A stretch of DNA of 64,000 nucleotides from an uncultured Eubacterium sp. (GCA_937900695.1 CALCFD010000051.1:1953-65952), one strand, 5' to 3'. Shown: positions 1 through 64,000, counted from the first letter of the stretch. Notes: a model not told the origin generated them from the letters alone. Made by a program: numbers and translations.

Positions 1-158
1 TAATCTTCTAACCAATGAAAATATTTACTTATAGTCTTTCTACTCATTACCTTATTACCTTGACTGTCAGTCATTTCTCTCTCAATGTTAGTAAACTAAC
101 ATTTCTTTTTTTCAATCTATCTATCTCGACTATGTAAAGTCACTCTTTCTGAATTACA

Positions 159-377
159 CTATAACCAAGCATACAATAAATCACAATAATTCTTTTCACT
201 TGTCACTTCTCTTCTACAAGGCATTTGCCTAGTATCAAGTTCATCTGGACTACGTTTCATTACTATTCCAATCCTTTCATTCTTAATTCTATTATATAAT
301 AAAAATCCAGATAAATCAATTATTTGTCCACGACCAGAAAATTTAGACCAACTATCAGAAATTTTTGGACAACTCAT
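159..377 (-). CDS. Hypothetical small protein; only minus-strand candidate, weak
   Basis: 72-aa ORF from the track. No recognisable domain and every other gene is on the + strand. Confidence 0.2.
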   Translation of the reverse strand: MSCPKISDSWSKFSGRGQIIDLSGFLLYNRIKNERIGIVMKRSPDELDTRQMPCRREVTSEKNYCDLLYAWL

Positions 378-444
378 TAGAAAAAAACGGACAACTCATT
401 AGAAATTTTTGGACAACCATTAGAAAATTTTGGACAGATTTACC
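339..444 (+). repeat. Iteron-like direct repeats, about 3.5 copies of a ~21-bp unit TTTTGGACAAC(T)CATTAGAAA
   Basis: Tandem near-identical units at 363-384, 385-405, 406-426, 427-444 and a degenerate copy at 339-361. A related copy, aaattttggacaacaatagat, lies at 63897-63917. Confidence 0.6.
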
Positions 445-659
445 TGTATGTCCAACAATTTATTACACATTTCTAAGATTTGTTACAGATCCTCAAAGCA
501 CGATATATTTTTCTACGTACATATGAAATTTTACCTCAATTTTTTACCCTTTCTGTTATTTCAATCTTTGTGCGGGATTGCCAATTTTCTTACCTAAAAA
601 ATTGCCAATCCGCATCCTAAACCGTACTTTTCGTTTACCTTCCATATCCTTTTGCATTA

Positions 660-714
660 TAACATTAAAAATGATATAATAAATATAGAAAGAATAAGAA
701 AGGAAGTTATGTAA
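660..714 (+). promoter_or_regulatory. Conserved phage promoter (extended -10 TGATATAAT) plus shared leader and RBS AAGGAAG
   Basis: tgatataat at 672-680, then atatagaaag..aaggaagtt. This motif recurs about 20 times in the window. Confidence 0.55.
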
Positions 715-906
715 ATGGATATGCCTTTCCTCGCATATACAGGTTCTTTTGAACTCGCGGCTAGAGAACTTGCAAGAACTCCTTTAGCAAGCGAGAACTA
801 TGAACTCCAAGACCTCATCTGCCGCAAATATGGAGTTTTTCTCGATAACTTAACAGATGACGAAGTCATCATGCTTTCTCGAATGATTGAAGAGTATGCT
901 AATTAA
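715..906 (+). CDS. Hypothetical protein (63 aa)
   Basis: ORF directly after the promoter/RBS motif. Confidence 0.5.
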   Translation: MDMPFLAYTGSFELAARELARTPLASENYELQDLICRKYGVFLDNLTDDEVIMLSRMIEEYAN

Positions 907-922
907 AGAAAGGAAGAATAGA

Positions 923-1468
923 ATGATTGGAGATATTATTACCGTAAAAGGAGTAAAATGCGTCGTCCTTGACGAAATTAATAGTAATCCCTTCGTCATT
1001 GCTCTTGATTTGGACATCGAATCTCCCTTCGGAGACTCTAATAACTATAAGAAAAGTAATCTGCGGAAGCGCATCGAAGCTTGGTTTGAAAAGACTGGTA
1101 TCAAGGCTATTGCCCGTGATGTCGACTTAACAGCGATGGACGGATATAAAGGATATGGAGCACTCAATACTGTTGTTGCACCTCTCACTTTCGATGAATA
1201 CCGCAAGTATAACCATATTCTCACTCCTCATATCAAGAATTTGTTTTGGCTTGTTACACCTTGGGGCTCTCCTGAGAAAGATAATTGGGCCTCGAACTAC
1301 GTTTGCTCTGTCAACTACGGTGGATCTGCGGACCGCGACATCTACTACGGCAGCGATGGGCTCGCGCCGGCTTTTATCCTCGATAGAAACCAGTGTTTTA
1401 ATAAGTCTCTTGGTGACTATACCAATGAGGAGCTTATTGCCGAGCTTAACAAGAGACTGAAGGTGTAA
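923..1468 (+). CDS. Hypothetical protein (about 181 aa)
   Basis: ORF track 887..1468. RBS aaggaag at 907-913 precedes ATG 923. Confidence 0.5.
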   Translation: MIGDIITVKGVKCVVLDEINSNPFVIALDLDIESPFGDSNNYKKSNLRKRIEAWFEKTGIKAIARDVDLTAMDGYKGYGALNTVVAPLTFDEYRKYNHILTPHIKNLFWLVTPWGSPEKDNWASNYVCSVNYGGSADRDIYYGSDGLAPAFILDRNQCFNKSLGDYTNEELIAELNKRLKV

Positions 1469-60959: not shown

Positions 60960-62487
60960 TTATGTAGATACAGCAGCTACTACTCAAGTAATTGGATGCG
61001 TGTTTAATAATGCCTCTATTCTTGATGATACAGATAGATATATAATCCACGAAGATGATTTCCAAGAGGATTTTCATAAAATAATCTTTGGTAGCATTTA
61101 TAATATTCATTTAACTGGCAGTCAAGTTAATATAGATGCAATTATAGACTATTTAGCGAATAGACCTAAGTTTGATGCTATATTTAAACAAAATAAAGGG
61201 GTAGAATATCTTCTTGAAGCCTCATAGAACGCAAGACAGGATACATTTAACTATTATTATAATAGATTAAAGAAATTTACCTTGTTAAGAGCATATGATA
61301 ATTTTGGTCTTGATGTTACTTATCTTTATGATCCAAATAATATTCTTGATACTCAAAAACGGCAAAAGCAAGAAGATTGGTTAGACAATACAAGTTTAGT
61401 AGAAATAGCTCATGCCATTGATATAAAAATAGATGAAATCAAGAGTAAATATATAGAGGATGATTTAGGGTTGGGGTATCAAGCTGGCGATGGAATTGAT
61501 GAGCTTATTAGCGATTTAGAGCAACATCCAGAAGTTGGTATTCCATTATATGGTCCCCTTATTAATACTGTAACAAGAGGAGCAAGATTGCGAAAGTTTT
61601 ATTTGCGGTCGGCCGCCACAGGAACGGGTAAGACGAGATCTATGATTGCAGATGCGTGCAATTTTGCGTGTAATGAAATCTACCATGAACAGTTTGGATG
61701 GATTAGAAACGGAACTTCTCAACCAACTTTATTTATAGCGACAGAGCAAGATAAGGGAGAAGTTCAAACAATGATGCTTGCTTTTCTTTCTGCTGTAAAT
61801 GAAGAACATATCTTAAATGGTCAATATTTAGAGGGAGAAAAAGATCGGGTACTCAAGGCCGCAGACATAATTAAAAAAAGTCCAATCTGGATTGAAGAAT
61901 TACCAGACTTTTCTCTACAAGATGTAGAGAACAAGATTAAAAAGAATATTCGTGAGCATGAAGTGAAATACGTCTTATTTGATTATCTTCAAACCTCTCT
62001 TAAAATCCTTGAAGAAATCAGTAAGAAATCTGGCGGAGTAAAGTTAAGAGAAGATAATATCTTGTTTATGTTATCCGCAAGACTTAAAGATTTAGCTAAT
62101 AAATATGGTATTTTTATTATGTCTGCTACTCAATTAAATGCTGATTATCAAAATAGTGAAACTCCAGATCAAAATCTGTTGCGCGGCGCAAAAAGTATTG
62201 CAGATAGAATTGACGTTGGTATGATTCTACTTAGTGTTACAGATGAAGATTTAGTAAAGCTTGACCCTATATTAGATAGTAACAAGAATTTATTAAGACC
62301 AAATCTTAAATTATCAGTTTACAAAAACCGCCGTGGTTCATATAAAGGAGTATATTTATGGTGTTCAGCAGATCTCGGAACTTGTCGTATTTTGCCACAG
62401 TTCTGTACTAATTGGAGACACGAAATGGTAAGTATTGAAGATATAAGAGTTATAGTTGATGAAGGTCCAGCCCCCTGGGAGAAATAA
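60949..62487 (+). CDS. dnaB: Replicative DNA helicase DnaB-like, one in-frame TAG at 61228
   Basis: ORFs 60934..61227 and 61282..62487 share frame 1. Walker A AATGTGKT, RecA-like core. ATG 60949 after gaggagg. Confidence 0.6.
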
Positions 62488-62613
62488 ACACAAATCTTGA
62501 AAAAGTAGATTAGGCTTTAAAGGAATTAGATATATCTCTCAAAAACCTAGATGGAACTTTTAAGCATATTAGTGATATTCTTAATGAAATATCTAATAAA
62601 TGGAGGAATCTTT

Positions 62614-62790
62614 ATGAAGAGCAATAACACACTTGAATATCGTATGAGTAAGAAAATGTTTAACTCTATTCTTTCTGGAAGAAGCGAAGAAGAGAAGAAA
62701 CAAAACCCTAAAGATTATGTGGCTGGAGTAGTTAATGAACAGTTTGGACTTAAAGGAACTGTAACTAATATTTCTATATATGATGTTTAA
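62614..62790 (+). CDS. Hypothetical small protein
   Basis: ATG 62614 after aatggagg. Confidence 0.3.
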   Translation: MKSNNTLEYRMSKKMFNSILSGRSEEEKKQNPKDYVAGVVNEQFGLKGTVTNISIYDV

Positions 62791-62792
62791 TT

Positions 62793-63896
62793 ATGTCAAG
62801 ATATTATGATAAAGATGAGCTAAAAAGCAAGTTAGAATTAGAACAAATTTATGATTTAATAGAAGCGTGGGGTGGTGAGCCTGAATATGTAGATGGAGGG
62901 CTCATCTCCCAAACAATATGCCATAATCTTCCAGGAGAAGGATCAAGAAAGTTATATTATTATGACAATACGAGACTTTTTAGATGCTATACTGGGTGTA
63001 TAGATCCAACTTTTGACATCTTTGATTTGTGCATAAAAGTTAAGAAAAAACAAGAGGATAAGAAGTGGGAACTTTATGATGCTATGGATTACATAGCAGG
63101 GTATTTCGGATTTGATGGTGTAGAATTAAAAGACGAAGAAGAGAAGTTAAAAGATTGGGATATATTTAAGAGACATAATATTCAACTACCCAAGCCAAAA
63201 GAAATTATCCATTTAAAAGAATATAACCCTATTATTCTTACTCGTTTTTCTTATCCTAGAATTGCAGGATGGGAAGCTGAAGGAATTTTACCCGAGGTAA
63301 ATAGAAGAAACTTTATTGGGTATTATCCCGGTGGAGGATAGATAACAATTCCGCATTTTGACATAGATAATAGATTAGTTGGAATTAGAGGAAGAACCTT
63401 ATCTGCTGATGATGCAGAGAGATATGGTAAATATAGACCTCTTATGGTAAATAGGCAACTATATAATCATCCATTAAGTATGAATTTATATAACCTAAAT
63501 CACAGCAAAGAAAATATAAAAAAGGTAAAAGCCGCAATTATATTCGAATCAGAGAAGAGCTGTCTCATGTATCAATCTTATTATGGGTATGATAACGATA
63601 TATCTGTAGCTTGCTGTGGAAGTAGTATATCTAGCTATCATATAGATTTACTTAAATCATTAGGTGTTAATGAAATTATAGTGGCTTTTGATAGACAGTT
63701 TGTTGAAATAAGCGATGATGAATTTAAACGATTAAAAGCTAAATTAATTCATATATATAACAAGTATAGTAAGAATGTTCGTATATCTGCTATATTTGAT
63801 AAACGAATGATTCTTCCGTATAAAAGTTCTCCTATTGATCAGGGTAAAGAAAAGTTTGAACAATTATTAAATGAGCGTATAACCTCTTTCAATTGA
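62793..63896 (+). CDS. dnaG: DNA primase DnaG-like (zinc-binding domain plus Toprim), one in-frame TAG at 63342
   Basis: CHNLPGEGSRKLYYYDNTRLFRCYTGC (CHC2-type zinc finger). ORFs 62793..63341 and 63444..63896 share frame 3 across TAG 63342; Toprim-like ..AIIFESEKSC.. Confidence 0.55.
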
Positions 63897-63964
63897 AAAA
63901 TTTTGGACAACAATAGATTAAGGTCCAGATACAATTTTATAATATAATAGAAGGAGGAATTAAT

Positions 63965-64000
63965 ATGCCAGAAAATTTAATAGGATAGACTTTCAATTAT
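63965..64000 (+). CDS. 5' end of another homing-endonuclease-like paralog (MPENLIG-Q-TFNY..), truncated by the window edge
   Basis: N-terminus shares the family motif LIG-TAG-(R/K)FG seen at 39403 and 28104. Confidence 0.35.

Follow-up and report, generated by a model that had tools for sequence, protein, structure and literature searches.

We analyzed a 64-kb stretch of DNA (the window; GCA_937900695.1 CALCFD010000051.1:1953-65952, filed under an uncultured Eubacterium sp.) and found that it comes from a large tailed phage whose genes use TAG as a sense codon. At least 27 conserved genes are intact apart from their in-frame TAGs, and at most of these positions relatives carry CAA, CAG, or TAG. 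Judging from its sequence, the phage very probably uses genetic code 15, in which UAG would be read as Gln via a phage-encoded tRNA with anticodon CUA (tRNA(CUA)) and UAA and some UGA codons would terminate. An earlier annotation made from the nucleotide sequence alone (the sequence-only reading) had proposed this assignment, with TAG as sense, most likely Gln, and with TAA and TGA as stops; coding density, codon alignments, and the tRNA(CUA) all bear it out. The window is 35.8% G+C, and its plus strand, to which all coordinates below refer, holds all credible genes.

Coding density was measured by greedy tiling of stop-to-stop open reading frames (ORFs) on the plus strand. Coverage was 67.5% with table 11 and rose to 85.7% when TAG was read as sense, a gain that exceeds chance by far. 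As a control, we read TGA as sense, which gave 68.8%, a gain of only 1.3%, indicating that TGA has kept its role as a stop. The ORFs obtained with TAG as sense ended in TAA (∼90%) or TGA, a result that is partly built in because the tiling allowed only those two stops. ORF lengths rose together with density, so the comparison of tables 15 and 11 that the sequence-only reading had suggested as a check came out in its favor. TAG was present in 32 of the 78 ORFs of at least 60 aa, ∼27 of which are credible genes, in agreement with the earlier estimate that standard-code calling fragments at least 25 genes. In-frame TAGs were also found at, or within 1 to 3 nt of, each of the positions cited in that annotation: exactly at 4446, 13525, and 16509, and nearby at 6959 (cited as ∼6958), 56598 (56599), 61225 (61228), 63339 (63342), and 57696 ("57639+").

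With TAG read as sense, the lysin, PhoH, DnaB, primase, ThyX, uracil-DNA glycosylase (UDG), tail-fibre, and homing-endonuclease genes all regained full length. The lysin locus (46842-48248) is the clearest case: table 11 yields fragments of at most 71 aa, and a single frame containing 12 TAGs encodes 468 aa. Pfam domains cross the TAGs uninterrupted in the lysin (Phage_lysozyme2 at 3-165 and Amidase_2 at 203-353, which together run across ten of its 12 TAGs), and they do so in the PhoH, GIY-YIG, UDG, Thy1, and DnaB proteins too. Table 11 shatters about one-third of the genes in the window (the lysin, tail fibres, helicase, and primase among them), and table 15 is therefore required for any functional or taxonomic work on this phage.

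In total, 121 TAGs are in frame, 98 of them inside alignments (high-scoring segment pairs) to related loci and 23 outside any homolog alignment. Most of the 23 fall in spurious small ORFs over tRNA genes or in N-terminal over-extensions, or form the last codon of three genes (g030, g039, and g065); for three others, in g074, relatives were too few for judgement. We considered whether the TAG-TAA ends of g030, g039, and g065 were leftover TAG stops and rejected this idea, as most relatives carry an ordinary sense codon there.

We assigned a meaning to TAG by codon-to-codon comparison with the raw DNA of 151 related IMG/VR loci. Raw codons were compared because database proteins might already be table-15 translations. 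The loci were anchored by the GyrA-like gene, the DUF2828 gene, and a third gene (7584-8882), using query parts that are free of TAG. They lie on contigs of 75 to 200 kb, with GyrA identities of 51 to 86%; most show the same density gain with TAG as sense, and a minority resemble standard-code phages. Searches of GenBank phages by megablast (with 49235-53511) and tblastn gave no close relative, and the relatives came from IMG/VR and the ENA.

The codons facing window TAGs were CAA (609), TAG (385), GAA (242), AAA (229), CAG (197), and GAG (122); CAA and CAG thus made up 806 of the 2,474 non-TAG residues. These counts bear on whether the TAGs are true stops that mark pseudogenes, separate fragments, or assembly errors, an explanation to which we give almost no credence and which is effectively refuted already. 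Such a view would fit the short ORFs that are all table 11 finds in the lysin region. Against it, frame, domains, and homology continue across 98 TAGs; TAG is either kept as TAG (the 385 pairs) or swapped with CAA or CAG over dozens of independent assemblies; and the genes hit include essential ones (lysin, DnaB, and primase), with 12 of 12 lysin TAGs the same in an independent 147-kb assembly.

Substitution profiles derived from the same alignments, with TAG columns left out, were used to score each amino acid as the meaning of TAG. Gln gave a log-likelihood of -5958, compared with -7657 for Lys and -7724 for Glu, a lead of ∼1,700 units. Gln kept first place when sites were weighted, when only apparently standard-code relatives were used, when endonuclease genes were left out, and at both high and low alignment identity. 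In a calibration of the site-by-site classification, 49% of TAG sites were classed as Gln, compared with 57% of true CAA/CAG sites, 4% of Glu sites, and 6% of Lys sites.

The lysin was also searched against a large protein database, where all close matches have Gln at the 12 TAG positions. We set this aside as evidence for Gln as circular, since a 97%-identical contig has TAG at 12 of 12 positions and was gene-called in code 15. What does count is that Gln is invariant at lysin columns 77, 225, and 299 down to 59% identity, along with the CAA and CAG codons found in raw DNA. In the public protein collection, the lysin of this lineage is already filed as a 468-aa protein with Gln at 12 of 12 TAG positions, so automated gene callers already recognize the code here.

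Separately, we made the reverse comparison, in which TAGs of the relatives (L001-L151) were matched to codons of the window. They faced AAA (249) more often than CAA (201) or GAA (122); the lead of AAA may come from a small number of densely sampled endonuclease columns, for example the GIY-K-I motif.

The phage encodes a candidate decoder. An amber-suppressor tRNA with anticodon CUA lies at 26916-26990 and was called by ARAGORN and by Rfam (59.3 bits); it is 75 nt long, with a short variable arm, a U1-U72 mismatch, G73, and an encoded CCA. Its short variable arm makes the long-arm Ser, Leu, and bacterial Tyr types less likely. G73 and the unpaired 1-72 position are compatible with bacterial tRNA-Gln identity and are no proof of it. 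The gene stands away from the main tRNA array and is directly followed by the ribosome-binding site of the next gene; a promoter-like site (26887-26916, TTGCCA and TATATT spaced by 18 nt, 10 of 12 positions in a consensus scan) adjoins its 5' end, and from this pattern match a promoter function is possible. In the closest relatives (L065-L071), the tRNA(CUA) is 96 to 99% identical and sits in the same place upstream of the DUF2828 gene, and 43 tRNA(CUA) genes were found among 80 loci around that gene. Isotype profiles were built from the tRNAs of relatives with the anticodon masked, and by these many of the relatives' suppressors are clearly tRNA-Gln-like, with Gln ahead by 15 to 25 bits. Pairwise identity of the tRNA(CUA) to the other tRNAs of the window was uninformative (Gly 0.67, Trp 0.65, and Gln 0.64). 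Candidates for a second suppressor among the extra Rfam tRNA matches were rejected; they proved to be a tRNA-Lys(CTT) with an intron, a tRNA-Tyr, and a doubtful tRNA-Leu. A theta/HDV-like (hepatitis delta virus-like) ribozyme of the kind described in PMC10879173 was looked for beside the tRNA(CUA) and not found.

ARAGORN labels this gene tRNA-Pyl, which would make TAG a pyrrolysine codon. We regard this as hardly credible: ARAGORN calls every tRNA with a CTA anticodon "tRNA-Pyl," no PylS or PylBCD domain is among the Pfam matches of the window, the tRNA(CUA) matches the general tRNA model from end to end and is similar to the tRNA-Gln group of phages, and it is Gln that faces TAG.

As side observations, ∼10 relatives (L072, L075, L080, L085, L110, L118, L122, L133, L142, and L143) have a tRNA(CTA) of 88 to 95 nt instead of ∼75, with Trp, Ser, Cys, or Lys and not Gln as top isotype; an intron or a long variable arm is possible. 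In one further relative (L083), a tRNA at 1109-1181 bears the anticodon TTA and would recognize TAA. Stop-codon decoding may differ in some members of the clade.

TAG is not spread evenly. It makes up 18% of Gln codons overall, with strong heterogeneity among ORFs (G = 231, 77 degrees of freedom, p = 2e-17), and 46 of the 78 ORFs lack it, compared with 27.6 expected. The share of Gln codons that are TAG is 52% in homing-endonuclease-like genes, 49% in the lysis cassette, 24% in tail-fibre genes, 5% in replication and nucleotide-metabolism genes, and 1% in an RNA-repair/vault-like/flotillin block; contrasts between gene classes gave odds ratios of 18 to 114 with p values from 1e-9 to 1e-20. The replication block at 48770-54717 (RNase H, GyrB-like, GyrA-like, and DNA ligase genes) has no TAG among 57 Gln codons. 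The earlier wording that TAG is sense "throughout this genome" was therefore an overstatement, as most TAGs cluster in the lysis, tail-fibre, and homing-endonuclease classes. Half of the genes would translate correctly under the standard code, and TAG is sense wherever it is in frame.

This distribution also bears on whether the bacterial host itself reads TAG as Gln, with the phage simply matching its host and no switch of code. Nothing in the window identifies the host, which leaves room for this idea. We consider it highly improbable, given that TAG is absent from more than half of the ORFs, that its use follows gene class, that the phage has its own suppressor tRNA, and that no code-15 bacterium is known. 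In phages matched to a recoded host, by contrast, the recoded codon occurs in ∼90% of genes (10.1101/2021.08.26.457843).

The preferred reading, a phage that recodes TAG to Gln by itself, can be placed in a published model. In that model, the host would have the standard code, and TAG-free and TAG-poor genes would be translated early by unmodified host machinery. The suppressor tRNA would be charged with Gln by host enzymes and would compete with release factor 1 (RF1), and TAG-rich lysin, tail-fibre, and endonuclease genes would give full-length products only after the tRNA had accumulated. Recoding would thus time lysis or hold it back like a safety catch, and would do the same for selfish endonucleases. 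The earlier statement that TAG is "not a stop" goes beyond what a sequence can show; until the suppressor tRNA has accumulated, host RF1 would still stop at UAG.

It is conceivable, and in our estimate rather unlikely, that amber recoding is more than a lysis timer and also serves as a containment device for selfish DNA, with UAG read partly as Glu in a weaker variant. TAG-rich endonucleases would then be expressed, and would home, only in cells where a recoded phage had already switched the code. Such confinement is suggested because 52% of the endonucleases' Gln codons are TAG and because their presence varies between 97%-identical genomes. One such genome, a 147-kb relative (L152; ENA ERZ28637503), retains TAG at every one of the 12 lysin positions. 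An extra GIY-YIG/NUMOD3 gene (249 aa, 13136-13885 of L152) stands there between the RNase H and GyrB-like genes, which in the window abut at the junction 49234/49235. The extra gene is TAG-rich (5 of 12 Gln codons), and this is a presence/absence polymorphism of a homing endonuclease.

Several observations weigh against the reading of UAG as Gln by a phage tRNA, or against parts of the scheme built on it. The isotype of the window's own tRNA(CUA) is only marginally Gln (Gln 37.2, Cys 35.8, and Gly 34.5). No release factor 2 (RF2) or aminoacyl-tRNA synthetase is among the Pfam matches of the window, which covers less than half of the ∼147-kb genome, and tblastn with a release-factor GGQ probe gave no match in the window or in 153 loci, a weak negative. 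DnaB, primase, ThyX, UDG, and PhoH carry one to three TAGs each, so replication also needs suppression and a clean split in which early genes follow the standard code fails; judging by the one TAG in each of DnaB, primase, ThyX, and UDG, suppression has to be working by the time replication genes are expressed. Timing in this phage is something we infer, and a timer or containment mechanism would draw on codon distribution together with the literature. Distant homologs of solved structure do not have a conserved Gln at the TAG columns (Q, S, V, or a gap in UDG; F in ThyX; L and K in PhoH; S and D in an amidase). These columns are variable, and we dropped the PDB alignments as a residue readout since they speak neither for nor against Gln. 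The second check proposed with the sequence-only reading, namely which residues face TAG, was hence borne out in phage relatives, where Gln was best, and not in the PDB columns of UDG and ThyX.

The last point against Gln is an excess of TAG at sites where Glu is the majority residue: 8 TAG versus 3 CAA and CAG, compared with 25 versus 81 at Gln-majority sites (odds ratio 8.6, p = 0.0017). Examples are the TAGs at 57801, 45224, 47805, 48015, and 42046; Lys positions show no such excess. The excess may stem from G-to-T mutation bias (GAG to TAG) or from decoding of some UAG codons as a residue other than Gln, conceivably Glu. We think it very unlikely that TAG is sense with Glu or Lys as its meaning, or with an ambiguous Gln/Glu meaning, which could arise if the host's indirect GluRS/GatCAB path amidated the suppressor tRNA incompletely. 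Besides the enrichment at Glu-majority sites and the ambiguous tRNA isotype, it would account for Glu being the second residue facing TAG (14.7%, compared with 7.3% facing CAA or CAG) and for the 13 of 82 TAG sites that class as Glu-like. It does not accord with the lead of Gln in every subset of the likelihood comparison or with the presence of TAG at 17.5% of Gln-majority sites, 2.8% of Glu-majority sites, and 0.6% of Lys-majority sites. Moreover, one G-to-T change turns GAG into TAG, and in an AT-rich genome mutation bias would probably be enough to produce the excess.

The decoding of TAG as Gln has precedents. In classical amber suppression by the tRNA-Gln(CUA) of Escherichia coli supE/glnV, Gln is put in at UAG in competition with RF1; here, the virus carries the suppressor, and ∼100 in-frame TAGs fixed in its own genome depend on it. 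Borges et al. (10.1101/2021.08.26.457843) found that TAG aligns with Gln in TAG-recoded phage genomes, with suppressor tRNAs detectable in ∼40% of them. In phages of standard-code hosts, they found that only 26 to 71% of genes are recoded. They also saw preferential recoding of lysis genes and an intron endonuclease, variable recoding of replication genes, and more than one code within a clade. Peters et al. 2022 (PMC9523058) gave metaproteomic proof that TAG is translated as Gln in crAss-like phages.

The window resembles code-15 gut phages (crAss-like, Lak, and "gemstone" clades) in having in-frame TAG at Gln columns and in conserved genes, a phage tRNA(CUA), TAA as the main stop beside TGA, a partly recoded gene set in which the lysis and endonuclease classes are strongest and replication is variable, and relatives of mixed code-15 and standard type. 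Judged by gene class, its partial recoding appears biased to late, structural, and lysis genes, as in those phages. Unlike the published intron endonuclease, which is TGA-recoded in Agate phages, the TAG-richest genes of the window are free-standing GIY-YIG, LAGLIDADG, and Zn-ribbon/DUF2726 genes, and the RF2/synthetase "code-change module," which only some code-15 phages have and which does not strictly define them, was seen neither in the window nor in the fetched loci.

Babkin et al. (PMC10607447) described ∼135-kb gut phages that encode tRNA-SUP-CTA and have TAG in ∼28% of their ORFs. This phAss-1 group (proposed Phassvirus; PMC10607447), from the human gut, has ∼28 to 36 tRNA genes including tRNA-SUP-CTA and no dedicated aminoacyl-tRNA synthetase, and the window is alike in these respects as far as its own sequence shows. 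The group has two or three suppressor tRNAs and the window has one. Membership would show as at least ∼80% nucleotide identity and synteny with phAss-1, BK046881, or BK025033; megablast against GenBank phages gave no match, and the best match of the GyrA-like protein in the GenBank phage collection had at most 36% identity. The lineage of the window thus appears to differ from the phAss-1 group. No new question is opened here: the phenomenon itself has been described and confirmed by experiment in other phages, and code 15 is already applied to this lineage by public pipelines. The window adds an independent case to the pattern behind the hypothesis of recoding as a lysis timer, and its lineage, whose many relatives include both code-15 and standard-code phages, would be good material for studying code switching.

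Among individual genes, the lysis cassette (45980-48580) comprises a NAGPA/SPOR protein (45980-46840, 4 TAGs), the lysozyme-amidase lysin described above, and a small membrane protein (48245-48580, 1 TAG); in relatives, CAA, CAG, or TAG stands at most of its TAG sites. Three tail-fibre-like genes (23081-25428) with 4, 1, and 3 TAGs follow an Mtd_N protein (22703-23065). The gene richest in TAG encodes a coiled-coil and GIY-YIG protein (55337-56245), in which 15 TAGs make up 62% of Gln codons; its homolog in L152 has 16 TAGs.

Zn-ribbon/DUF2726 homing-endonuclease-like genes are present at 4329-5261 (6 TAGs), 28104-28841 (5 TAGs), 35686-36472 (8 TAGs in total), and 39403-40113 (5 TAGs); Pfam supports the first, third, and fourth. 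The third is split into a Zn-ribbon part (35686-36006) and a DUF2726 part (36191-36472), and the 184-nt gap may mark a decaying copy or interruption by an unidentified element. Across these paralogs, the motif EFDG.[Q/TAG]H sets TAG against Gln. Two GIY-YIG endonuclease genes recognized by Pfam lie at 13510-14151 (2 TAGs; likely start 13510, after a tRNA-Thr) and 16455-17216 (4 TAGs, with the one at 16509 in the motif YIG-x-S). A GIY-YIG/NUMOD endonuclease gene (57633-58301) has 9 TAGs among 10 Gln codons, and a LAGLIDADG endonuclease gene (17917-18315, 3 TAGs) has a weak Pfam match (E ∼6e-4). Relatives carry mostly Gln codons or TAG at 16509 (CAA 25, TAG 23, and CAG 13) and at 57696 (CAA 27, TAG 23, and CAG 10), so the earlier statement that TAGs sit at conserved Gln residues held for these two sites. 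It did not hold at 13525, where relatives are chiefly Lys (AAA/AAG 31, TAG 6, and CAA 1), or at 4446, where they are a mixture of Lys, Arg, and Gln and the window paralogs have Lys.

Genes with few TAGs include the UDG gene (6842-7567; one TAG, at 6959), the PIN-PhoH gene (44678-45934; Pfam), the ThyX gene (56526-57152; one TAG, at 56598; Pfam Thy1, 6.5e-47), the DnaB helicase gene (60934-62487; one TAG, at 61225; Pfam), and a primase-like gene (62793-63896; one TAG, at 63339). PDB matches down to 4e-47 span the TAG in UDG, where relatives have TAG (7) and CAA (2). PhoH carries the three TAGs expected from the sequence-only reading (45224, 45554, and 45605); relatives have CAA (25), CAG (19), and TAG (6) at 45554 and Glu or Lys at 45224. 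The corresponding counts are TAG 4 and CAG 2 for ThyX, CAA 23, GAA 12, and CAG 3 for DnaB, and CAA 15 and CAG 7 for the primase-like protein.

Pfam matches in the window include UDG, the GyrB/GyrA-like topoisomerase, DNA ligase, RNase H, ThyX, DnaB, the primase-like protein, PIN-PhoH, the lysozyme-amidase lysin, the NAGPA/SPOR protein, and Mtd_N tail-fibre proteins. The window also holds an RNA-ligase/kinase/phosphoesterase cluster and several endonuclease-like genes of the GIY-YIG, LAGLIDADG, and Zn-ribbon/DUF2726 types. ARAGORN called 28 tRNAs. Rfam and intron-aware ARAGORN added a tRNA-Lys(CTT) with a 41-nt intron in its anticodon loop (20314-20431) and a tRNA-Tyr(GTA) (20779-20866), both absent from the first ARAGORN run, and with these all 20 amino acids are covered. 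A transfer-messenger RNA (tmRNA) at 17500-17830, missed by ARAGORN, matches Rfam RF00023 over its full length (69.9 bits; gathering threshold 47). Its tag frame, taken from the alignment, appears to read ...DNDYFSNNIAA followed by TGA; speculatively, the tmRNA could help clear ribosomes that read through TAG-terminated (host) messages once suppression is on. A twister-P1 ribozyme-like match at 12809-12866 covers the full model (49.5 bits, E = 1.6e-8; below the Rfam gathering threshold of 67.2) and ends 5 nt upstream of a tRNA-Ser(GCT) at 12872; by analogy with published theta ribozymes, it may be a tRNA-adjacent self-cleaving ribozyme.

The window also carries cargo that is odd for a phage (28878-33215 and 42245-43771): a DUF2828/DUF7788 protein (501 aa), an 809-aa protein with Major Vault Protein shoulder, Vault_3, and Band_7 domains, and a flotillin-like Band_7 protein (508 aa). 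All three lack TAG and favor CAG over CAA, opposite to the rest of the window. The stretch from 28878 to 35615, which encodes the DUF2828/DUF7788 and vault-like proteins, a nucleotidyltransferase, and a phosphoesterase, has no TAG among at least 50 Gln codons, again with CAG more frequent than CAA. Finally, an RNA-repair-like cluster at 33836-42168 is nearly free of TAG and comprises the nucleotidyltransferase, three metallophosphoesterases, an RNA ligase (38063-39343), and an AAA_33/KTI12-like kinase; in L152, an RNase_T gene lies directly upstream of the RNA ligase.

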